NCBI GenBank assembly: GCA_002839285.1
Contig: PGXT01000001.1
Location: forward strand, 80,112-144,111
DNA from: Spirochaetae bacterium HGW-Spirochaetae-5
Lineage (GTDB): Bacteria > Spirochaetota > UBA4802 > UBA5550
Direction: 5' to 3'
Length of the DNA: 64,000 nt
In this document: positions 3,393 through 59,857 of the stretch, in pieces
Layout: the number at the start of each line of letters is the position of its first letter
Numbering within the stretch: the stretch's first letter is position 1
Position numbers and translations under genes: made by a program
The notes under the pieces: model-generated
Told to the model about the DNA's origin: nothing
What the model saw: only the letters and a program-made list of their open reading frames with translations
Database searches by the model: none

Positions 3393-5041
3393 AAAAATAC
3401 CTGATACTCGACTGCTATGTGGATGAACCTGCCTGTCTTGGAGTACCCCCCTTTATATCACCATATCCCCGTTATATTTACGGAGCACTTATATCTGCCG
3501 GCGTATCTCCGGATGCTATAGTCTACCGGACAATTGATCATCTTCGTGAGAGCGATTACAATCTGACGGGAAACTTCAACCACGTCTTTCTTATCGGAGG
3601 AGCAGCCGTTCCCGGCAAATACCTGGGTGCGCGTATAGGTTCACTTGCAGAGATAAATAAAATTCTGAATCAGAACAGCAGAACCGGATTTTCCGTGGGG
3701 GGACTGATCCATCGTGCGATTACATCTCCGCCGGCTAACACCACAGTGATCAGCTATGATATAGAAAAATTTGCGTTTACCATGGCACGGGGTAATCCTG
3801 AAGACAGCTGCAGGACATCGGAAGAGATAGCGGAATGGGGAGTAAAGGGCGCCGGCGTGGTAAAGGATCACCCATGGTATCCCGATGTAATCTGCGAAAT
3901 GGAAACAGGGAGAGGATGTCCCAGGGAGTTTCACTGTTCATTCTGTTCTGAGGGACTAATAAAAAATGTCGAATTCCGCAGCGCCGGAGATGTTCTTAAT
4001 GAGGTTGACGCACTTATAAATTCCGGAGTCTCACGCTTTAGAATCGGGAGGCAGGCGGATATAATACAATATGGGAGCCGCCTTGATGTTTACAATAACG
4101 GATTTCCGGAACCGGAACCTTCAGCAGTTAAAGAACTCTTCCTGGAACTGAAAAAAAGAAAAGATGCCGGAAAGATAACTGTTCTTAATGTGGACAACGC
4201 AAATCCCGGATCTATTGTAAACTGGCCCGATCACTCTTCGGCTATTCTTGAATCAATTGCCGCCGCAGTAACACCCGGGGACACCCTCCCCTTCGGGATT
4301 GAATCTTTTGATGAGACAGTTGTACGGCAGAACAACCTCAAGGTAACACCCGATGAGGCTCTATTTGCAGTAAAACTTGTAAATGAAATATGCGGCTGGA
4401 GAGAGGATGGAATCCCCAAACTGCTGCCCGGGATAAATCTTATTCACGGGCTGAAAGGCGAAACCGCTGAAACATTCAGAACCAATCACCACTATCTTGA
4501 AAAGATAGCGGCGGACGGGCTGCTGGTTAAGAGAATAAACATCCGTAAACTTCAGCCCTATCCGGGAACACCGCTTTTTAATGAAAGATTTAAAATCAGC
4601 GGAACTCTTACAAAAAGATTTGAATATTTCAGAGAGAGAATCCGGGACGAAATTGATCATCATATGCTGAAAAAAATCTATCCGGCGGGTACCATTTTAA
4701 AAGAAGTTCTCATGCTCGACACCAGAGACGGGTATTCCATGGGGAAACAGATTTCCAGTTACTCAATAACAGTAAAAGTTCCCGGGACTTTCGATAATAA
4801 AAGTTTTAAAAATGTACTGGTCACTGGACACAGGGAGAGATCTCTCTTATCGCTCCCTCTGCCATTTACAATTAATACAACTTCGGCTAAAGCATTTGAG
4901 ATGATACCGGGAGTAAGCAGAGACAGGTCTTCCGATCTGATTCTAAAAAGACCCTTTGGAACTGTGGATGCGTTCACGGAAGAGATAAAAAATGTTCAGC
5001 CCGATCTGCTTAAGATTATCGGGGATAATTCGGAGATTTAG
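3389..5041 (+). CDS. radical SAM protein with C-terminal helix-hairpin-helix (COG1031-like)
   Basis: N-terminal LDCYVDEPACLGVPP, ETGRGC-x5-CSFC cluster motif, C-terminal INT..FEMIPGV HhH. Confidence 0.8.
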   Translation: MKKYLILDCYVDEPACLGVPPFISPYPRYIYGALISAGVSPDAIVYRTIDHLRESDYNLTGNFNHVFLIGGAAVPGKYLGARIGSLAEINKILNQNSRTGFSVGGLIHRAITSPPANTTVISYDIEKFAFTMARGNPEDSCRTSEEIAEWGVKGAGVVKDHPWYPDVICEMETGRGCPREFHCSFCSEGLIKNVEFRSAGDVLNEVDALINSGVSRFRIGRQADIIQYGSRLDVYNNGFPEPEPSAVKELFLELKKRKDAGKITVLNVDNANPGSIVNWPDHSSAILESIAAAVTPGDTLPFGIESFDETVVRQNNLKVTPDEALFAVKLVNEICGWREDGIPKLLPGINLIHGLKGETAETFRTNHHYLEKIAADGLLVKRINIRKLQPYPGTPLFNERFKISGTLTKRFEYFRERIRDEIDHHMLKKIYPAGTILKEVLMLDTRDGYSMGKQISSYSITVKVPGTFDNKSFKNVLVTGHRERSLLSLPLPFTINTTSAKAFEMIPGVSRDRSSDLILKRPFGTVDAFTEEIKNVQPDLLKIIGDNSEI

Positions 5042-12352: not shown

Positions 12353-12426
12353 CGGGGCGTAGCGCAGCCCGGTAGCGTACTTGAATGGGGTTCAAGTGGT
12401 CGGAGGTTCGAATCCTCTCGCCCCGA
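12353..12426 (+). tRNA. tRNA-Pro(GGG), prophage integration target; CCA not encoded
   Basis: Cloverleaf: CGGGGCG/CGCCCCG acceptor stem, CTTGA-ATGGGGT-TCAAG anticodon arm, GGAGG-TTCGAAT-CCTCT T arm. Confidence 0.95.
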
Positions 12427-12429
12427 ATA
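12383..12429 (+). repeat. attL core (47 bp)
   Basis: gaatggggttcaagtggtcggaggttcgaatcctctcgccccgaata is identical to 53116-53162. Confidence 0.95.
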
Positions 12430-12517: not shown

Positions 12518-13600
12518 CTAAATAACACGTTTAATCTTTACTACATTATCCATTCTACCTGCTTTTTCCTGAAGATCGTGTCTGGAGAACATGGCATATC
12601 TTTTTTGTGTTGTCTGAATAGACTCATGCCCTAATAAGCTCTGAATATCTTCAAGACTTACACCCTGATCAAGTAGAGTCTGAGCATAAATATGACGCAG
12701 GTCATGAAAATGCAGGTCTGTACCATCACTTATTTTTCTGAAAGAAATCATATTCAAAAGCTTACCCCACTGTTTCCGGAGAATGTTATCAGTATATTCT
12801 CCAACAACCAGAGAACTGTTATTCTTCATAGAAGACAGTATCTCCATTGCTGCAGGAGTTATGGGAACAATCCTTGCCTTTTTGGATTTAGTCTTGTGAG
12901 CTGAAAGCCTTATAAAGCGCGAATCAAAATGCACTTCAGACCAATCAAGAGTGAGTATCTCTTTTTTTCTCATACCGGTCAAAAGAGCGATTACAATAAC
13001 ATTATAAAACTGTCTGTCGATTGTTTGCGCCTTGAGTAAAAACTCTTCAAGCTGCTCCCTTGATATCCTGACTTCGCGCTCGTTATTTTCTTTAAGTTTA
13101 GTCAGAGCAACCGGATTGATAGTGTTGATATATTCCTTACGTATGCAGTATGAAAAGAACGAAGAAAGGCAGGCCAGATCCCGATTGATTGTAGCATTGC
13201 TCACCTTACCTTTTACCCTGGTATTAGCATGTAATGCAAAGACCTTATTCCTTCTCCACGTAATGAAATCATCAACATGCGATCGTCTGAAATCAGAGAG
13301 TAAAATATTCTTAAAGCAGCTTTTAAACCTCAGTATGGATCTTGATTCGGCATTTAAAGCTTTTGCAGATTTATTTTGCTCCACATGTATTAAATATTCA
13401 TCTAAAATTTCAAAGAACTTGAACTGCTTTGTTACGCCTAAAAGAATTTTACCTTCCCATTCCCTGAAGAGTGCATCCACCGCAGATTTACGGCACGTGA
13501 CAACCTTCCGAAACTGATCCCCCTTAAATCTGATATAGAACTGATATTTTATATAACCCTTTTCTACACCGGACTGGTCTGTTACTTCTTTGTAGCCCAT
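12518..13600 (-). CDS. int: phage tyrosine integrase
   Basis: TGMRKKE (R), KTK (K), FHDLRH, LLGH, RYA catalytic motifs; adjacent to attL. Confidence 0.95.
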   Translation of the reverse strand: MGYKEVTDQSGVEKGYIKYQFYIRFKGDQFRKVVTCRKSAVDALFREWEGKILLGVTKQFKFFEILDEYLIHVEQNKSAKALNAESRSILRFKSCFKNILLSDFRRSHVDDFITWRRNKVFALHANTRVKGKVSNATINRDLACLSSFFSYCIRKEYINTINPVALTKLKENNEREVRISREQLEEFLLKAQTIDRQFYNVIVIALLTGMRKKEILTLDWSEVHFDSRFIRLSAHKTKSKKARIVPITPAAMEILSSMKNNSSLVVGEYTDNILRKQWGKLLNMISFRKISDGTDLHFHDLRHIYAQTLLDQGVSLEDIQSLLGHESIQTTQKRYAMFSRHDLQEKAGRMDNVVKIKRVI

Positions 13601-15996: not shown

Positions 15997-16821
15997 ATGA
16001 CCGGAATTGTAAAATCGGAACAGAATGAAATAATTACTCCTGAGAAGATTAGTGAATACATGAATGTATTCGGAATAGCTGCAAATCTCACAGACATTGA
16101 AAAGAGACAGTTTACCGAAATTGCAACTGCTTATCAGCTGAACCCCTTCAAGCGGGAGATATACTGCATCCCCTATATGAGCAACGTACAGAAGCCTGAT
16201 GGCACCTGGGAGAAAGAACGGAAGCTATCAATCATTACCGGGTATGAAACGTATCTAAAGCGAGCTGAAAGGCTTGGCCGGTTGAACGGGTGGAATGTCC
16301 AGGTTGCAGGAGATGGAGACAAGCGCGTTGCCAGGATCACAATTCACCGTAAAGATTGGGAACATCCATTCACCCATGATGTACACCTTTCTGAGTACAA
16401 AGAGAATAATAAAATGTGGAAAGAGAAACCGATGACCATGCTGAAGAAAGTGGCAATGGCTCAGGGATTCAGACTTGCCTTCCCGGATGAGATGGGGGGA
16501 CTTCCATATGCCGAAGAGGAGCTTCCCGATACAATGACAAAAGAAACGAAGCTGCCGGAGCCCTCCTCTCCTCCGCCGCCGGATGTTACGCCCGATGCAC
16601 TGAAGAATAATAAAGGTGAGATTGAGCTTGAAAACGGAGATCATAAAGAGACCATGAAGAGACTCGGGAAATGTAGAAATGAAATTCACATTCAGACATT
16701 TCTTAAGCTTAGAGAGAAACGTATCTGGACCGGGGAGGAACTTAAAGAGCAGGATAACTTTATCTCAATCCTTAGAGATCAATGGAAAGCTGAAGCAGAT
16801 GCAGCAAAGAATATGAAATAA
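15997..16821 (+). CDS. single-strand annealing recombinase (Bet/RecT family)
   Basis: QLNPFKREIYCI, ITGYETYLKRAE, MWKEKPMTMLKKVAMAQGFRLAFP. Confidence 0.85.
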   Translation: MTGIVKSEQNEIITPEKISEYMNVFGIAANLTDIEKRQFTEIATAYQLNPFKREIYCIPYMSNVQKPDGTWEKERKLSIITGYETYLKRAERLGRLNGWNVQVAGDGDKRVARITIHRKDWEHPFTHDVHLSEYKENNKMWKEKPMTMLKKVAMAQGFRLAFPDEMGGLPYAEEELPDTMTKETKLPEPSSPPPPDVTPDALKNNKGEIELENGDHKETMKRLGKCRNEIHIQTFLKLREKRIWTGEELKEQDNFISILRDQWKAEADAAKNMK

Positions 16822-17290: not shown

Positions 17291-17938
17291 ATGGACGATA
17301 ATCGAAAATCATATTACGCCATAATCCCGGCCAATGTGAGATATGATAAACGGCTCTCACCAAATGCAAAACTCCTCTACGGGGAGATCACGGCTTTATG
17401 CAATGAAAAAGGTTACTGCTGGGCGAGTAATGCTTATTTTGCGAATCTCTATGATGTATCAAACAGGTCAATAACATCCTGGATGAAGAGTCTTAAAGAT
17501 CACGGATATATATCTATCGAAATTATATATCGCGAGGGTACGGAAGAAATTCTCCATAGGTATGTAAGAATTCTTCATGGGGGTATAGAAGAAAAACAGC
17601 ATACCCCTATAGAAGAAAACTTCCAGGATAATAATACAGTTATTAATAATACAATTAATACTACATGTGAAGAGGGGGAAAAGCGTAAACGCTTTATCCC
17701 ACCCACACATGAGGAAGTTGCAGAATACTGCAACAATAACCCCTACCCTATAAATATTGAATCATTTATAGATTTTTACGAAGCGAAGGGCTGGAAAGTT
17801 GGTAATACTAAAATGTCGGACTGGAAAGCTGCTGTAAGAAATTGGTACAGAAGAGATAAAGGTAAGCCGCCATCAAGAGCTAAACCGAGCATCGAGGAAA
17901 ATCTGGAACGATTCAGGAGGATGAGTGATGAATTATGA
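17291..17938 (+). CDS. phage replication initiator (N-terminal HTH, O-like)
   Basis: YYAIIPANVRYD.RLSPNAKLLYGEI..GYCWASNAYFA; C-terminal FIDFYEAKGWKVG..MSDWKAAVRNW. Confidence 0.85.
   Translation: MDDNRKSYYAIIPANVRYDKRLSPNAKLLYGEITALCNEKGYCWASNAYFANLYDVSNRSITSWMKSLKDHGYISIEIIYREGTEEILHRYVRILHGGIEEKQHTPIEENFQDNNTVINNTINTTCEEGEKRKRFIPPTHEEVAEYCNNNPYPINIESFIDFYEAKGWKVGNTKMSDWKAAVRNWYRRDKGKPPSRAKPSIEENLERFRRMSDEL
17539..17662. other. putative phage replication origin (4 degenerate iterons plus AT-rich tract)
   Basis: tatagaagaaaa-like repeats at 17539, 17561, 17584 and 17608, then ataataatacagttattaataatacaattaata. Confidence 0.55.
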
Positions 17939-19769: not shown

Positions 19770-19794
19770 GGATCAAAGAAAGAGCTTGAAATCT

Positions 19795-19871
19795 AAATCT
19801 TTTTTAAATCTTTTTTAAATCTCTTTTAAATCTCTTTTAAATCTCTTTTAAATCTCTTTTAAATCTCTTTT
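19795..19871. repeat. tandem repeat, 7 x 11 bp (AAATCTYTTTT)
   Basis: Two AAATCTTTTTT units then five AAATCTCTTTT units. Confidence 0.95.
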
Positions 19872-19882
19872 AAAAATCAACT

Positions 19883-21541
19883 TTATGATTTAACCCATTT
19901 TGGCTTTGTATCAGTACCAATATTCTTGATTTTATTTGTGATTCGTAATTCTGATAAGAGATTCGTTATTTTATTTTTCTTTTGTTTGTCATCCATTAAA
20001 TCCGGAAGTTTTGTCCACAGAAGATCATCTACATCTTTTCTTTCCATAAATTTATGCTGATCAATTGCTTTCATAATAAGATCAAGATAATAGTTTTTAT
20101 CAAATGCCTTATTCTTTGAATATGCTGCCTTCTGACCTGTTTTTTGAGCAACTTTCAATGATATATAGTAATTCGGTTTTCGGCCTTCTATGAGTCCTTC
20201 AGAACGTAAATGCTTTTCTTCTATATCAGATAGAGATTTATTTTTTTGAACTTTATCAAGAAGAATTATTTCATCAAGAGTTAGATCGGGATCCCGGGCA
20301 AGCAGCCTGGCATATTCTATATCAAGAACTTTACCCGTGATGGTCAATTTAACTTTTTCATCTGAAAGATCATAATCCGGCATAGGGAAGAATCTTTGTC
20401 TTTGAAAATTGTACATTTTACGGATACCGCCCCCGGCTGTATCGACCATTTTAAGATTAAACATAGCTGTTGCTAGAAACCTGTTTCTGTAATACTCTTC
20501 AGGGGCATCTTCCCGGACAACACGTTCAACATCACCAGGTATAAAACTCCCTAAATTAGTAAATATCAGCTGGTCATCCATTTCAACTACATTGATCATA
20601 CCACCCTTTGTATAATCCTGATGTGCGATACTATTATTTATTGCTTCCCTGAGTGTATATGGTTCATACTGGTCTATTTCCTCCGGAAACAGAGTGCCAT
20701 CTTTGATATATCGATATTTCAAATTTCTAACTTTGGCATATACTTTATCAACAGCAAGAAGAAAAGGAAGACCAAATATTGCATAATCCTTATCATTGCC
20801 GCGTGAATCTTTCAACAGCCAACGTATCTTAGGATTTGCAGGCTGGATAAAATGTTCAGATTCATCTTTTCCGAGAAGAAGTAATGTAGTTCTGGTTATT
20901 TTCCCTTTTACAGTAAGTTTTGCTTTATTAAGAAATGTTATAATATCCCATGAATCTATTTCTACAGCTTTATCAGGAAATTTAGTTTTAAAATTGAGTC
21001 TTGCAGTCTGGATTGCATTAATATCAAGATCGTCAACTGTTGCACCCATAACTATCTCAGCGCTCCAATCTTCAAGTGTAGCCTGTTGTCTGATTCTTTC
21101 TATTTCTTCAATGTTCAAAGGTGAAAGCGATTCACCATTACGGCCGAAATAATGACCATCAAAATTAATTGGCAAACCCCGAGGAGCAGCTGGAATTTGA
21201 AACATGACAACACGACCTTCTGAACGAGGGATTTCATATATTTCAATAAACGTTATCCGGTTATTTATCTTGTTGGCAAGTTCATCTTTAAGGCTATCCA
21301 GATCTTTACGATTTGAACGATAATTTGACCCAACAATTTTATGGTGCTTGTCTTCAACTCCAAATACAAGCCAGGCATAGGGTTTTCTTTTAAGGTTTGC
21401 CTCATTACTGAGCGCAGAAAAATACTTACCAATTTTTTCAAAGCTATAATCATTTTTAGCTTCTTTAAATTCAACAACTTCGGTTTCTGCGGGTAGATTA
21501 AGGAGGTTATCTAATATATCATTAAGTTCTTTGGTTTTCAT
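19883..21541 (-). CDS. Schlafen/AlbA_2 + HATPase_c_4 + HTH protein (putative anti-phage nuclease/regulator)
   Basis: ETEVVEFKEA..FSALSNE; LREAINNSIAHQDY, TNLGSF, YRNRFLA, DTAGGGIRKM. Confidence 0.8.
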   Translation of the reverse strand: MKTKELNDILDNLLNLPAETEVVEFKEAKNDYSFEKIGKYFSALSNEANLKRKPYAWLVFGVEDKHHKIVGSNYRSNRKDLDSLKDELANKINNRITFIEIYEIPRSEGRVVMFQIPAAPRGLPINFDGHYFGRNGESLSPLNIEEIERIRQQATLEDWSAEIVMGATVDDLDINAIQTARLNFKTKFPDKAVEIDSWDIITFLNKAKLTVKGKITRTTLLLLGKDESEHFIQPANPKIRWLLKDSRGNDKDYAIFGLPFLLAVDKVYAKVRNLKYRYIKDGTLFPEEIDQYEPYTLREAINNSIAHQDYTKGGMINVVEMDDQLIFTNLGSFIPGDVERVVREDAPEEYYRNRFLATAMFNLKMVDTAGGGIRKMYNFQRQRFFPMPDYDLSDEKVKLTITGKVLDIEYARLLARDPDLTLDEIILLDKVQKNKSLSDIEEKHLRSEGLIEGRKPNYYISLKVAQKTGQKAAYSKNKAFDKNYYLDLIMKAIDQHKFMERKDVDDLLWTKLPDLMDDKQKKNKITNLLSELRITNKIKNIGTDTKPKWVKS

Positions 21542-25870: not shown

Positions 25871-25914
25871 TGTATTTATCCTGCACTATTTAAAACTTAA
25901 TTCAAAAAAACATT

Positions 25915-26301
25915 TTATTGCAGGTGATAGTATCTTATTGTTGGTTCCAATGTTCCGTATATCAGCACAAAAGCCACAATATTCTTTTTGTCTATTGTGA
26001 ACCTGGAAATAAATAGGTCACCGAACACTAAATTGTAATCATTAAGTTCTTTATGTATTTGATCTAATATTTCGTTTTCAATTTCCTTTTTTGGCTTAAA
26101 CGGTTCTATTTTAGATAATGTCTTTTTGTTAAATGATTTCTCGAGTATCACATCAAAGACCGATTCACCATATGCTTGAATATGTGATCCAAAACTGCCC
26201 ACGTACTGAAGTGCTGAAATTTTCGTTGTCTCCGAATGCAGAATGTTATTTGTTGACACAAATAGTAAAAGCATAATTAAAATCACAGTTATTCTTTTCA
26301 T
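25915..26301 (-). CDS. exported hypothetical protein (128 aa), paralog of 47122-47508
   Basis: Signal peptide MKRITVILIMLLLFV; likely start at ATG 26301 by alignment with the paralog. Confidence 0.75.
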   Translation of the reverse strand: MKRITVILIMLLLFVSTNNILHSETTKISALQYVGSFGSHIQAYGESVFDVILEKSFNKKTLSKIEPFKPKKEIENEILDQIHKELNDYNLVFGDLFISRFTIDKKNIVAFVLIYGTLEPTIRYYHLQ

Positions 26302-26447
26302 TTTAAAAAATACCCCTTTTCTTGTTATTCCAGCATTTAGATAATATATTTTCACAGTCTGTTGTTTCTGGCCACATCCAAATTTTTGTACAATGTTTCT
26401 TAGTCGAAAACACTAAACTTTTAATGATTGAAAACCATATTAAAATC

Positions 26448-46275: not shown

Positions 46276-47073
46276 ATGGAAATTTCAATTAAGCAGAGTC
46301 TTGCAATCGCAATCCAGGCGAAATTCGATGTTCCTGAATTTCTGATCCTGGACTCATTCCCGGAAGATAAGTGCAGAGAAATTCAGGCATCACCAGATTA
46401 TGAGATAATCGAGAATGTAGCAATACCGGTTTCAGATATGGATATAGAACAGATATTATACTTCAAAGATGGGAAGTTTCATTACCCTAGCCTTTTTATA
46501 AATGACAGATACCTTCTATCCGGCCGCCAGGGAGGAATACTACCTGCAAATCTTGTCACTGCATTTCCCGGACAGATCGTAAAGTCACGCCAGTTACAGG
46601 CCCTTCAGGGCATAATATCTGAATACTCCGGATTCATCACAATATCACAATCAATCATAGATAACAAAATGTATTTCAAGGATCTTAAATTCGGTATACT
46701 CCCTGATTATATCCCCCACCTTGAAGCACTTCATGGCGAAGAATCACCGGACTGGTTCAGTCATAACCTGGAAGATCTTAAACTTAAAGCAGCAAAAGGA
46801 ATGACAGCTTCATGCAGACTATATTCATATCCATATGATGAAGATAATCTAAAAGTCGTAGAACAGTTCCCGGAGATAGACGCTATCCTCATTGAGAGCT
46901 GCTATATGACACTGAAGTATTCACCAAAAGCCCATATCAAGGATTTATGGAAGGAGCTATATAAACCGCTGCAGGATCCCTATTACGCCCATAATGGACT
47001 TGTATTTAATCCTGAAGGCGGAATTAAGGCACGGAAAGTATATTCTATAATCAGAAAATCCCGAATTTTGTGA
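46276..47073 (+). CDS. hypothetical protein, possibly a degenerate PurD-like ATP-grasp fold
   Basis: Order of motif-like segments (FKDGKF.YP..RYLLSG..G; YSGFITI...MYF; ASCRLYSYPY; IKDLWKELY); judged by eye only. Confidence 0.45.
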   Translation: MEISIKQSLAIAIQAKFDVPEFLILDSFPEDKCREIQASPDYEIIENVAIPVSDMDIEQILYFKDGKFHYPSLFINDRYLLSGRQGGILPANLVTAFPGQIVKSRQLQALQGIISEYSGFITISQSIIDNKMYFKDLKFGILPDYIPHLEALHGEESPDWFSHNLEDLKLKAAKGMTASCRLYSYPYDEDNLKVVEQFPEIDAILIESCYMTLKYSPKAHIKDLWKELYKPLQDPYYAHNGLVFNPEGGIKARKVYSIIRKSRIL

Positions 47074-47121
47074 TTTCACTACCGGGTGTACATTATACTT
47101 TAATGATTTTAATAAATCTTA

Positions 47122-47508
47122 TCATTTCATATGATAGTATCTAATTGTTGGCTTTAATGTTCCATATATTAACACGAAGGCTACAATTTTTTTATTGTCT
47201 GTTATGAATTTCCCAATAAACAAATCGCCAAACGATAGATTGTAATCATTAAGTTCATTTTTTATTTGATCTATTATGGCGTTTTCAATATCCTTTTTTG
47301 GCTTAAACGGTTCTATCTTGAGTAATGTCTTCTTGTCGAAAGATTGCTCGAGTATAGCATCAAAAACTGATTCTCCGTAGGTTTGAATAAGTGAGCCAAA
47401 ACTACCAGCATACTGAAGTGTAGAAACTTTTGTTGTCTCAGCATGCAAAATGTGATTTGTCGATCCTGTCAGCAAAATTACAGTTAAAAACAAAGCTATT
47501 CTTTTCAT
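47122..47508 (-). CDS. exported hypothetical protein (128 aa), second cassette-like gene
   Basis: Signal peptide, AAGGAG RBS, starts ~60 bp after the attC R' site; roughly 70% identical by eye to 25915-26301. Confidence 0.8.
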   Translation of the reverse strand: MKRIALFLTVILLTGSTNHILHAETTKVSTLQYAGSFGSLIQTYGESVFDAILEQSFDKKTLLKIEPFKPKKDIENAIIDQIKNELNDYNLSFGDLFIGKFITDNKKIVAFVLIYGTLKPTIRYYHMK

Positions 47509-47560
47509 TATAACATTACACTCCTTTATTGTAATTGCAATAATATTCAATGTAGTATGG

Positions 47561-47657
47561 CCCTAACATCTTGCTTAACGACGTTGCGCGGCCTTTTGCG
47601 CAATGTGGCGAATCCCAAGTGAGGTACTCCGAACGCCGCGGGTAAGCTTTGTTAAAC
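47561..47657 (-). other. integron attC recombination site (97 bp)
   Basis: Minus strand: R'' GTTTAAC, L'' GCTTACCCG, internal hairpins (ACATTGCGC/GCGCAACGT), L' CGTTAAGC, R' GTTAGGG. Confidence 0.75.
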
Positions 47658-49738
47658 GATGCAGCCACATTACTATATGTTTTTTAACTTTGAGGCACGG
47701 ACGCCGAAAAGTTCACGATATGTTTGTTTTACAAAAAATATATTCAAAGTTTAATTCAAATTCATTTCAGTTAACGGATCATAATGGACCTTCTCAGTAG
47801 AAACATCTTTCTTGACAATAAGTATTCAATGCGCCCTGTTTATATTAAACTTTAAGATTACGAAACATTTAATTTGGTTCGTATGTTGTTAATTTCAAAT
47901 GTCAGGAAACTCCTTGTCCCATTATTACTTTCAATAGAATATGATGTAGATAAGACCTTAAGTATCATAGAACCAAAACCGGATGTTTTATTTATGTCAT
48001 AACCATCTTTCAGTCCAACACCATCATCTTGAACAGAAAGATTCACTTGATTACCAATCCTGTCTATATGAATCAATATATGACCACTATCTCTTCCTAT
48101 GAAAGCATATTTAAAAGCGTTTGTGAGTATTTCATTCAAAGCCATGCCAATTGACACAAGCTTATCTGCTTCAAGATCAAAATCATTAATTCGCTGTTCA
48201 ATGGTTACTTTTTTATCAGAAAAAACTCCAACTATCGAATCGACAAGTGACTCAATATAATTTTTAACAGAAACTTCCTGATAATCATTACCAAGCAGTA
48301 ATTTTTCATAAAGAATACACATACTGTCCACATGAGAAATAGCAGTATGAAGTCTTGATTTAACCTCTGCATTTGTTGAATCTTCTGCTTGTAAATAAAG
48401 CAATGAGCTAATAGAGGCGATATTGTTTTTCACGCGATGATGAACTTCCTTGAGAAGATTTTCTTTTTCTGCAAGTAGGGATTTTATTTTTTCTTCTTTA
48501 AGCTTATGATCTGTTATATCATTAATTATAACTTGAACTGCTGTTTGCCCGCTATATAAAATTGGCGTGCTCTGAACATCAGCAACTATCGTCGTACCAT
48601 CCAGCTTGTTTAATTTTTCTTCAACTTTCGGATTGGTTTCACCAGTCACAAGGGCAGATTGTATTCTCATCAGGACGGAGTTGTGTATGTCCGGATTAAC
48701 AAAGTCAAGAAAAGACTTACTGAGCAAATCTTGTGCAGAGTTTGCCCCAAGCATCTTAATGGTTGCCGGATTGACATAGCAAATCCTGTCATCATAAAGA
48801 ACCAGCATTGGTGCTGGCGACAATTCGATCATGGTGCGGTATCGTTGTTCACCAGCAATGAGCAAACGATGTGTTCTTCCGAATACCAGTAAGGGTAATC
48901 CAATAGCGAGAACCAGTCTGAGACCTATCTCACTGATAAAAAATATGGCCTGGATCATTCCGCCCGCTGCCATCAGGTTCTGGTTTGTCGGCCCCATAAA
49001 TAGATTAGATACTCCGCGAATGACCATGAAAATTGCAGTTATAATATATCCCATAGCAACAAACCAGTGTACCAATCTGTCCTGGCCGTCTTTCGGCCGC
49101 AATACTATATAGGCAATTGCGAATCTGAGGGTAGTAGCTATTATTGAGTATGCCACTATTCGTACCGATAAGTTTGGCATAAAGTATGTGAAGTAGATAA
49201 ACAGGATGGCGGTGAGAGCAGATAGACACCAGTACCATGGAAACGTGCTCTTTTTGCCCTGAAATGACAAGTTGCCGAGGTATTGAAAACCAATGCCGGT
49301 TACCAGCAGTGTGTTAGAAAGAACAATGGATAAATAATCAGGAATAAAATCACGCAGCCACACTAGTACCATTCCGATGCCAATGACCGTCTCGCCTATC
49401 GCCCAGAGCCGTAAGCTTGTATCTTTTTTTATGACATAATTGACGATCTGCAAACCTATCGCCAACAGCAGGCTGCTGAGCATGACAAGAAAACTCAAGG
49501 TGCGAATGTCGAAGCTTATCATTGGTCCTCCAAATTTTGATACAGGAATCTTTGATAATATCCGGAGAGTTTTAAGTCAACTCTTGGGGCATAAAGATAA
49601 AGATTGCCCATTATCCGAAGTATAAAATAGTTATATGCTTTAATTCTTAATATATTAGAATAATGAATAAGAAAATATATTTTTTCTCTCTTTCCGGCAC
49701 GGATGCCGGGTTTTGTAGTTTGCGGCTGTTTCGTTTAA
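47567..49738 (-). mobile_element. integron gene cassette (2172 bp) carrying a histidine kinase
   Basis: Cassette start G|TTAAACGAAACAGCCGC is complementary (15/18) to the attC R'' arm GTGGCTGCATCGTTTAAC. Confidence 0.75.
47858..49522 (-). CDS. membrane-bound PAS + HisKA_2 sensor histidine kinase
   Basis: ~7 TM helices, PAS (YVNPA..LG..D.V.P), LLKEVHHRVKNN H-box, NEILTNAFKYAF, DDGVG, GFG. Confidence 0.9.
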   Translation of the reverse strand: MISFDIRTLSFLVMLSSLLLAIGLQIVNYVIKKDTSLRLWAIGETVIGIGMVLVWLRDFIPDYLSIVLSNTLLVTGIGFQYLGNLSFQGKKSTFPWYWCLSALTAILFIYFTYFMPNLSVRIVAYSIIATTLRFAIAYIVLRPKDGQDRLVHWFVAMGYIITAIFMVIRGVSNLFMGPTNQNLMAAGGMIQAIFFISEIGLRLVLAIGLPLLVFGRTHRLLIAGEQRYRTMIELSPAPMLVLYDDRICYVNPATIKMLGANSAQDLLSKSFLDFVNPDIHNSVLMRIQSALVTGETNPKVEEKLNKLDGTTIVADVQSTPILYSGQTAVQVIINDITDHKLKEEKIKSLLAEKENLLKEVHHRVKNNIASISSLLYLQAEDSTNAEVKSRLHTAISHVDSMCILYEKLLLGNDYQEVSVKNYIESLVDSIVGVFSDKKVTIEQRINDFDLEADKLVSIGMALNEILTNAFKYAFIGRDSGHILIHIDRIGNQVNLSVQDDGVGLKDGYDINKTSGFGSMILKVLSTSYSIESNNGTRSFLTFEINNIRTKLNVS

Positions 49739-49751
49739 CTTTTATTTATAC
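49733..49751 (-). other. attI-like primary recombination site
   Basis: Minus strand GTATAAA-TAAAA-GTTAAAC has the 7-5-7 layout of attI1 (CCCTAAA-ACAAA-GTTRRRY) and lies exactly at the cassette start. Confidence 0.6.
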
Positions 49752-50163
49752 GTATTTCTTATATATGATATAAATGGAACGAATAACGAAATATTTCGTA
49801 TGATGGATCTATCTATTAAAATCAATACTGCCTTTAAAACTGTAAATAGCAAGTCATAAACATTGTGAAGTTTTATATTTTTTATAAAGTATATGTGTGG
49901 GCTTATACATACTTCCAGCAACCAGCAGCATCCCTAGCCCCCCCCCACGGTGTATCAGCTAATGATGTGAAATCAGAGGGGGGAAGATGTGGGTGAGCTT
50001 CTCTCTCGAATAATTATTCTATAATAGATATATCCCTTCAATCAGTCTGAATAATATATATTGCTCATTGCAATGAATAGAATCAATAAAGCTGTTACAG
50101 TTTAAAATGTGTGAGCATTACCACAACTGGACAGCGCGAGCCGTTAAGCATTTTCTAAAATAC

Positions 50164-50367
50164 TTAATCTTCATCATATCGCTGTATAAATTCAATACAA
50201 GCCCTTCTAATAATTGCCGATCTATCAACATTATACCCGGTCTTTTCTCTCTCCTCTGCTGCTATCTCATCTAATCTTTTAGTCAATGATTCATCTATTC
50301 TTATAGAGTAAGCTTTTACTGCTCCTCCCTCTTTATGTGGCCTTCCCTTCTTCTTTGTATCTGTCAT
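50164..50367 (-). CDS. ribbon-helix-helix (CopG/Arc-like) regulator
   Basis: KKKGRP, YSIRIDESL..RLDEIA...RSAIIRRACIEFI. Confidence 0.8.
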   Translation of the reverse strand: MTDTKKKGRPHKEGGAVKAYSIRIDESLTKRLDEIAAEEREKTGYNVDRSAIIRRACIEFIQRYDED

Positions 50368-53115: not shown

Positions 53116-53162
53116 GAATGGGGTTCAAGTGGTCGGAGGTTCGAATCCTCTCGCCCCGAATA
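53116..53162 (+). repeat. attR core (47 bp; displaced tRNA-Pro 3' part)
   Basis: Identical to 12383-12429. Confidence 0.95.
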
Positions 53163-59368: not shown

Positions 59369-59497
59369 CCTGATAATTTTAAAAAAAAAGGTTTTTGATT
59401 AAAATTTTATAATAAAGACTTGTTATGTCACTGAAATTTTGTACTATATTATTATAACTTTATGCAAATTAAATAATGGAGCACCGGTACAACTGAT

Positions 59498-59857
59498 ATG
59501 CCGAAAATACTGATTGTTGAAGATGAAGAGATGTTAAGAGATCTCTACGAGGAAGAGCTTCTTGACGAGGGATATGAAGTAGTAAAAGCTGCGAATGGTT
59601 CCGAAGCCTTAAAAATTGTTGAGAGTGAAGAGATTGACCTTATTATGATGGATATCAGTATGCCGGAAATGGACGGGATTCAGGCTCTCGGAAAAGTTGC
59701 TTCAAGAGAAAGGAAAATACCGGTAATTATCTATACCGCCTATTCAAACTATAAAAGTAATTTTATGACATGGACCGCAGATGCTTATCTTACAAAATCA
59801 TCAAACCTTGACGAACTTAAAAAAAAGATCAACAACCTTCTTGCCAGAGATTTATAG
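59498..59857 (+). CDS. single-domain response regulator
   Basis: ILIVEDE..MDISMPEMDG..YTA..K. Confidence 0.92.
   Translation: MPKILIVEDEEMLRDLYEEELLDEGYEVVKAANGSEALKIVESEEIDLIMMDISMPEMDGIQALGKVASRERKIPVIIYTAYSNYKSNFMTWTADAYLTKSSNLDELKKKINNLLARDL

Follow-up and report, generated by a model that had tools for sequence, protein, structure and literature searches.

An isolated integron-type gene cassette at an attI-like site in a temperate spirochaete prophage

Introduction

Isolated integron cassettes (SALINs) arise when a cassette is inserted at a GWT site. Each consists of a single cassette with a single attC site, has no integrase gene nearby, and is located at a G-W-T target (attG) in double-stranded genomic DNA, the machinery residing elsewhere in the host, according to the accessible part of the study that describes them (Loot et al, bioRxiv 10.1101/2022.09.11.507474). 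A locus sharing all of these features is described here. It lies in a 64,000-nt stretch of the genome of Spirochaetae bacterium HGW-Spirochaetae-5 (GenBank assembly GCA_002839285.1, contig PGXT01000001.1, positions 80,112 to 144,111; hereafter the window, in whose numbering positions are given), in which one gene cassette encoding a sensor histidine kinase is embedded in a temperate prophage of this groundwater bacterium. The locus departs from the SALIN/attG case in that its target is a prophage site that strongly resembles an attI core, whereas attG sites are stressed to be unlike att sites in the same part of that study (Loot et al, 10.1101/2022.09.11.507474), and in that the recombinase concerned is not IntI1, IntI2, or IntI3 but a spirochaete relative lacking the IntI-specific domain.

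Integron parts have been reported from phages before. When 10,705 phage genomes were screened with IntegronFinder or HattCI, three complete integrons, one In0, and 17 CALINs were recorded; lone attC sites are not among the classes reported in the accessible part of that work (Qi et al, 2023, PMC9892861). As in the present case, temperate phages there carried parts of a sedentary chromosomal array of the host, and a route of lateral transfer was proposed; the Vibrio phage cases, as presented in that part, resemble captured array segments, whereas the locus described here is a single cassette, inserted site-specifically, with both junctions visible. The "reverse" integrons of the Treponema type (Wu, Doak and Ye, 2013, PMC3607928, as far as the available text goes) also have a spirochaete host, a recombinase gene and cassettes in the same orientation, long arrays, and homogeneous attC sites. 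The Treponema IntI, however, is called by IntegronFinder, which, in the portion available, requires an IntI-specific profile (Cury et al, 2016, PMC4889954), whereas the recombinase encountered here lacks that region and is extended N-terminally by ~115 residues. An additional domain near patch III is indeed treated as defining IntI in the available portions of the literature (Cury et al, 2016, PMC4889954; Ghaly et al, 2022). Phage morons and lysogenic-conversion cargo, too, are accessory genes located beyond the tail genes, where the late operon ends, in a slot whose content differs between related phages; here, the route of entry is legible as an integron-type cassette insertion. A search of open-access full text returned no description of a lone attC in a prophage. 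The type of event is thus known from SALIN/attG and from integron parts in phages; new are the prophage setting, the visibility of both junctions, and the lineage with its atypical recombinase.

Results

The locus comprises the following elements, all on the minus strand.

47567-49738, minus strand: gene cassette of 2172 bp, consisting of a 5' leader, the kinase gene, a 3' trailer, and the attC up to the G of the closing GTT
47858-49522, minus strand: cassette gene for a membrane-anchored PAS sensor histidine kinase of 554 aa
49693-49738, minus strand: conserved 5' leader of the cassette, an A-rich run followed by a GC hairpin, common to many cassettes of the lineage
47561-47661, minus strand: attC, with the R'' box at 47657-47651, the closing GTT box at 47567-47561, and the crossover between 47567 and 47566
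49739-49751, minus strand: attI-core-like target, with a 7-nt L-like box at 49751-49745, a 5-nt A-rich spacer at 49744-49740, and the crossover G at 49739

Both cassette ends lie at G/TT (the slash marking the crossover), that is, at 49739/49738 and 47567/47566. From the letters of the DNA, a first-pass annotation had proposed a 7-5-7 attI-core layout at 49751-49733, a mobile unit of 2172 bp, and complementarity of the cassette start to the flank of its attC at 15 of 18 positions. The strings it quoted and the layout are all present on the minus strand, with the crossover G at 49739; the unit runs from 49738 to 47567; and the 15/18 complementarity was confirmed by a hand check. Its coordinates for the attC needed amending in one respect: the 18-mer said to begin the element spans 47668-47651, whereas 47657, correctly placed, is the start of the last seven letters of that 18-mer, the R'' box.

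The attC belongs to a family that is abundant in the host. With an nhmmer profile built from 13 full host copies, positions 47660-47564 scored 95 bits (E 2e-28), the single match in the window. BLAST of 47540-47680 against the same genome returned 25 further copies (E <= 6e-4), which are distributed over 11 contigs, and one more was found separately. The host copies are spaced 0.7-2.3 kb apart and reside mostly on short contigs, as would be expected where arrays fragment an assembly. In a complete genome of the same genus (G004), the same profile detected 33 attC, all on one strand, within 39.8 kb downstream of the recombinase gene. Two length classes occur in the lineage, one of ~100 nt and one of ~150-160 nt.

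For 21 aligned copies (that of the phage and 20 from the host lineage), a structure consisting of an R stem, a 9-bp L stem, and three inner hairpins is proposed. Across these copies, 94.6% of the cells were paired, compared with 26-52% when the partners were slid, and nine pairs were altered on both sides, whereas none of 500 shuffles attained this number. The AAC/GTT pairs do not vary in any of the 21 copies; the L stem is 96.8% paired, with four pairs changed on both sides. Since the single phage attC folded as DNA no better than its shuffles (z +0.42 and -0.24), the case for this structure rests on covariation across the copies. The phage copy itself is peculiar: its L' arm is one base short and carries one substitution, which is unique among the 21, the 20 other copies all keeping the 9-bp L stem (several of them through compensatory change). 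The spacer beside the crossover carries a private change as well. The damaged L' arm probably now hinders re-excision.

In a cassette array, the first bases after each G/TT are those of the cassette that follows, and complementarity is expected between them and the flank of the R'' box of this following cassette. In the array of G004, the 12 nt after G/TT agreed with the complement of the cassette's own attC flank at a mean of 9.0 of 12 positions, and with that of the upstream neighbour at 5.4 of 12; the own attC was the better partner in 21 cases, the worse in two, and tied in four (n = 27). A blind search with the flank of the phage attC recovered 49739 as the cassette start, with 11 of 14 positions complementary and 7 of 14 for the next-best site. 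Similarity to a host cassette of smaller size (contig C25) starts exactly at 49739 and is found again at 47744-47600, a stretch of ~150 nt that leads up to and into the attC. The signature of a recombined cassette that the first-pass annotation had described is upheld: the cassette is genuine, with an attC of the host's own family, G/TT on both sides, and a self-complementary footprint.

The 5' leader is 87.5% identical to C25:924-878 of the same genome (G000), and similar cassette starts follow attI or attC in G000, G004, and others of the lineage. Read on the plus strand, the leader at 49693-49710 resembles an intrinsic terminator. The gene that follows it matches HisKA_2 (9e-20), PAS (3e-14), and HATPase_c_2 (5e-8) of Pfam. 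Among 64 genomes of the family, no close orthologue of the kinase was found, in arrays or otherwise, but only paralogous kinases, whose full-length matches are ~30% identical. The kinase is presumably expressed; a promoter scan was uninformative in this regard, returning 15 sites where 17 were expected. Right after the kinase stop codon, the region 47770-47855 (minus strand) contains a non-coding element, conserved over ~50-90 nt, that recurs at six or more other, non-array loci (contigs C294, C305, C182, C81, C309, and C138). A search of Rfam with 47500-47900 (E <= 1), which includes this element, returned no match. The element might act as a regulatory leader or be a small RNA that was picked up when the cassette was formed.

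To judge the site at which the cassette sits, true attI sites were taken from the DNA after the stop codons of 12 homologous recombinase genes (loci L023-L036) and aligned at the crossover. In 10 of these 12 relatives, G/TT is located 72-75 nt after the recombinase stop codon, despite recombinase identities down to 47%; among close kin, the region is conserved upstream of G/TT and cassette-specific downstream. The L-5bp-R core layout that the first-pass annotation had assigned to the phage site matches the 7-nt box, the 5-nt A-rich spacer, and the G/TT of the 12 true sites. Weight matrices covering the last 13 or 15 nt ahead of the crossover were derived from the 12 attI, these lengths being chosen once the data had been seen, and ranked the phage site 1/2134 (13 nt) and 1/2133 (15 nt) among the GTT sites of the window; the site also ranked first with the nine attI from outside the host's genus. 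With 13 nt, it tied with a site at 17717 on the all-12 matrix (both 9.5) and on a matrix of the three own-genus attI; with 15 nt, it ranked second on the latter. With longer matrices, it ranked 3-6 (20 nt) and 4-16 (25 nt). Genome-wide, it ranked 21-46 of 144,832 sites (top 0.03%), and held-out true attI ranked 13-25. The distal 60 nt of the site ranked 8/2132 by mean local alignment with the 12 attI and 56 with the nine that are not close kin, and were not special by best single score. A true attI adjoins an integrase gene; the phage site does not. By chance, 21-46 sites of such quality per 4.7 Mb correspond to 0.2-0.4 per phage of ~40.8 kb, so that a fortuitous attI mimic is quite possible. 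The resemblance is probably fortuitous rather than maintained for capture.

The carrier of the cassette is delimited by the following features.

12383-53162, plus strand: prophage of ~40.7 kb, integrated in tRNA-Pro on contig C203
12352-12427: tRNA-Pro, the final 47 nt of which are repeated at 53116-53162
12383-12429 and 53116-53162: attL and attR, the 47-nt direct repeats bounding the prophage
12518-13600, minus strand: phage integrase, a tyrosine integrase according to Pfam
47122-47550, minus strand: small phage gene just downstream of the cassette, assigned to no family; a phage gene and not a cassette gene

An integrase gene, direct repeats at a tRNA gene, and virion genes on the plus strand (terminase, portal, major head, and structural protein by PHROGs) identify the element as a temperate prophage. 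Its plus-strand late genes stop at 47073. The cassette is internal, ~3.4 kb from attR, in the stretch of variable cargo that separates the last tail gene from the right arm. No recombinase open reading frame (ORF) is present near 49739, and the phage integrase is the sole recombinase of the prophage; with 47 bits against TIGR02249 (cut-off 265), it is an ordinary tyrosine integrase. The phage thus has no integron-type recombinase of its own, as the first-pass annotation had it.

A candidate enzyme is encoded elsewhere in the host genome.

C286:3361-4518 (locus L008:1210-2367), minus strand: host recombinase, a 385-aa tyrosine recombinase beside rpmH-rnpA-yidD-yidC

Cassettes and attC follow this gene directly on the same strand, both in the genome of the window (C286) and in G004. 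The recombinase of G004 is 95% identical to that of the host, and the G004 array extends over ~96 kb (4,328,809-4,424,945; 40 of 85 candidates were scored); recombinase gene and array together occupy C1:4,328,809-4,428,078. In the host array, a run of N at C286 ~877-956 (masked or a scaffold gap) renders at least one attC unreadable. The best match of the host recombinase in the PDB is IntI4, the Vibrio integron integrase VchIntIA (2a3v; 1.4e-44). However, where 2a3v has 52 residues (chain positions 185-236), the host recombinase has 11, so that the IntI-specific domain is absent; an N-terminal extension of ~115 aa is present. TIGR02249 matched in two stretches with 207.9 bits, below its cut-off of 265, and NF040815 (XerA / integron integrase) was passed with 231 bits. 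The same domain gap was found in the recombinases of G003, G004, G005, and G116, all of which are below the TIGR02249 cut-off, and no other gene in these four genomes passes it. A homologue of the recombinase was present in 26 of the 64 family genomes. Because the domain held to be defining in the literature is absent, the host enzyme is referred to as IntI-related, not as IntI. The attC family that the first-pass annotation expected to see in the host lineage is therefore present, and its arrays adjoin an IntI-related recombinase that could act in trans; that this enzyme would be a canonical IntI did not hold, given the domain gap and the score below TIGR02249.

The cassette was also found outside the phage. 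Sediment metagenome contigs from other studies (runs X2, X3, and X4) cover 47641-49739 and leave 46900-47470 and 49750-50300 without cover, which for these runs is no evidence of absence. The pieces in X3 and X4 are identical, and the two may be one data set. The longest contig (X2 record 15) differs from the window at 60 positions over 48102-49739 (1638 nt; ~96% identity), and X2 record 14 (47641-48117) is ~93% identical, with 26 differences and seven gaps. The X2 contig turns unlike the window immediately after 49739, and the letters that precede the cassette there (43, of which 30 were inspected by eye) match neither an attC end nor an attI core. That the cassette occurs in another context with the same boundary strongly suggests that it moves as a whole unit.

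Two relatives of the phage were found, a prophage in G116 and the IMG/VR locus L022, neither of which shows the same GTT in use. Relatives were present in 0/7 other genomes of the genus, compared by DNA, and in 1/121 other genomes of the order, and a phylum sample gave 0/400. A single tail protein retrieved no relative from viral, genome, or metagenome contigs, a two-row alignment none from metagenomes, and the small right-arm protein none as a query. The G116 prophage is syntenic with the window up to 47037 and from 49879 onward. Between these arms, it carries 2055 bp of other cargo (a 134-aa ORF, a 271-aa secreted protein, and a response-regulator receiver) and no attC, and the 140 bp carrying the site in the window (49740-49878) have no nucleotide match in it. 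In L022, the same tail gene is followed by a response regulator, beyond which the minus strand carries the first ~60 nt of a family attC with two small ORFs ahead of it; the contig stops short of any junction. This assignment is based on BLAST against the host genome (E 2.5e-5), nhmmer (E 4.5e-4), and an alignment, whereas BLAST with the short-class attC returned nothing from L022; that the remnant belongs to the same family is suggestive only. In the slot where the window phage has its kinase, both related phages have a single-domain response-regulator gene (locus L021, reverse complement of 4235-4600; L022:8897-9255). That of L022 shares ~74-75% DNA identity with host genes, including one at 59497-59844, immediately beyond the prophage. 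This phage group seems to favour two-component signalling genes as cargo.

G004 also contains attC clusters away from its main array. For three of these four clusters, the start of the first cassette could be located at G/TT (11-12 of 14 positions complementary), and the cores upstream of it ranked 1/619, 10/643, and 8/506; in the fourth (L071), no such start could be identified (8/14). Within the genus, attI-like cores that have no recombinase gene beside them have thus received insertions more than once, as three of four clusters begin in this way. One cluster of ~8 attC (G004:C1 near 2,805,000; L072:4547-5092) starts ~120 nt after a fragment that resembles the RecT gene of the window prophage (15997-16821) and contains an IS110-family transposase gene; cassettes and phage DNA may have come into contact here as well.

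Discussion

The locus is probably an isolated integron-type cassette (SALIN) that was inserted into a resident or infecting temperate phage by the array-associated tyrosine recombinase of the host lineage. A circular cassette with the kinase gene would have been released from a cassette array, and its folded attC would have recombined at G/TT with a double-stranded phage site, the last ~15 nt of which happen to mimic the family attI core. The insertion would have taken place in the variable cargo region that follows the last tail gene and precedes the right arm, and the phage would now carry the kinase as a lysogenic-conversion gene that it could move to any host lysogenised at tRNA-Pro. The cassette and its attC family, both G/TT junctions with the footprint, the host arrays with their recombinase, the attI-like target, and the phage-free occurrence can be read directly from the DNA; that the host recombinase carried out the insertion is likely. 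A single attC in the window, damage to the L' arm in the phage copy only, and the lack of attC in the G116 prophage all speak for a one-off event, and, as in other SALINs, a single attC accompanies the gene with no other att site or integrase nearby. A one-off secondary insertion of the attG type, which the first-pass annotation had listed as the alternative to its own proposal, is thus judged the more economical reading.

Several observations weigh against this reading. The target is unusually attI-like, which is unexpected for a purely random GWT insertion, and the mean score of its distal 60 nt against the 12 attI is high as well. That L022 has a truncated attC in the corresponding cargo region is a hint that capture occurred more than once in the lineage. 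In G004, two attI-like sites without intI hold 6-8 attC each, so that such sites can hold arrays. Attributing the insertion to the host recombinase relies on an enzyme that, to judge from its sequence, lacks the domain canonical IntI uses to read attC. Finally, the central 40 nt of the phage attC are unbridged in the Logan contigs, so that the real phage might, strictly speaking, hold more than one cassette.

Some of these points would fit a phage that keeps an attI-like site without an integrase gene as a docking platform, at which the host recombinase loads and unloads cassettes in trans and from which the phage shuttles them between hosts, as the first-pass annotation had envisaged. The core is the best attI mimic of the window, the left junction retains the L-like box, the spacer, and the G, so that a further cassette could enter, and the L022 remnant as well as the attI-like G004 cores heading 6-8 attC point in the same direction. 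However, the G004 sites do not prove repeated loading, because multi-cassette blocks can insert in one event. In the phage, there is one cassette only, and its attC has a uniquely damaged L' arm; the repeated use proposed for the docking site is therefore not borne out. The comparison with related prophages for which the first-pass annotation had called speaks against it, too, with the 140 bp of the site unmatched in the G116 prophage, other cargo in their place, and no attC there; just two phage relatives were found at all, neither with the same GTT in use, and 0.2-0.4 comparable sites per phage are expected by chance. We therefore regard a maintained platform as unlikely. Equally doubtful is the broader proposition that temperate phages of these spirochaetes are dedicated cassette shuttles, each with an integrase-less attI-like site in its cargo slot that would be served in trans by a chromosomal recombinase running arrays of up to ~96 kb (G004) and reading attC without the IntI-specific domain.

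An error of assembly is far less probable than either. A metagenome assembler might have joined a phage contig to a fragment of an integron array via the repeated attC, the phage itself being free of the cassette. Indeed, the attC is a high-copy repeat with a depth of 1135 compared with ~22 for its flanks in run X1, Logan contigs break inside it (between 47608 and 47648), and the genome is a metagenome bin of 309 contigs with 3.4% contamination. However, X1 record 6 (5498 nt, no differences) spans the 5' part of the attC, the kinase gene, and the junction at 49739, and continues to 50300 and ~2.8 kb beyond, and X1 record 1, which is 27,764 nt long and likewise without differences, covers the tail genes of the phage and reaches the 3' part of the attC with its private variants. 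The cassette junctions lie in unique sequence on both phage sides, and their depth is equal (20.8 and 22.1). The window itself may well derive from run X1, which would make this a second assembly of the same data, not an independent one. A chimeric assembly is very improbable, because the gap between the contigs is confined to the central 40 nt of the attC (47608-47648), with both sides free of differences and equal in depth.

Entry without an integron-type recombinase, by imprecise excision of the prophage beside an array or by homologous or illegitimate recombination, the routes put forward to explain integron pieces in phages of Vibrio anguillarum, is hardly credible: although phages with captured pieces of chromosomal integrons have been described (Qi et al, 2023, PMC9892861, in the part accessible), the prophage resides in tRNA-Pro on C203 and the host array beside rpmH-rnpA-yidC on C286, the insert is internal to the phage, ~3.4 kb from attR, and both ends at exactly G/TT together with a self-complementary footprint are not expected from imprecise excision or homologous exchange.

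Read as a secondary insertion by the host's array-associated recombinase, the locus is a clean natural example of site-specific recombination placing a cassette in a phage genome, with the donor attC family in the same host. It links the shuffling of integron cassettes to lysogenic conversion, which are usually studied apart, and a phage of this kind can ferry a host cassette between cells. The phage site and three of the four out-of-array clusters of G004 together suggest that natural secondary insertion favours attI-like cores. Tools that require an IntI-specific profile would label the large arrays of this lineage integrase-less. Should the shuttle interpretation be true after all, an integron lineage would read attC without a structural element held to be essential; how an IntI-related recombinase recognises the folded attC is a testable question.

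Further features of the window

The small gene at 47122-47550 was considered as a second cassette and rejected, being a paralogue of a phage gene and lacking an attC: a copy with 77-78% nucleotide identity (over 47108-47539) is located at 25901-26332, in the early, left part of the prophage. Neither copy has a Pfam match, and the copy at 47122-47550 has no PHROG match either. That the 97-nt element might be attR or a tRNA fragment was likewise rejected, the real attR being at 53116-53162. Across the whole window, the tRNA is the sole match to Rfam. At 19783-19885, upstream of an ORF at 19883-21541, an 11-nt unit is repeated in seven tandem copies.

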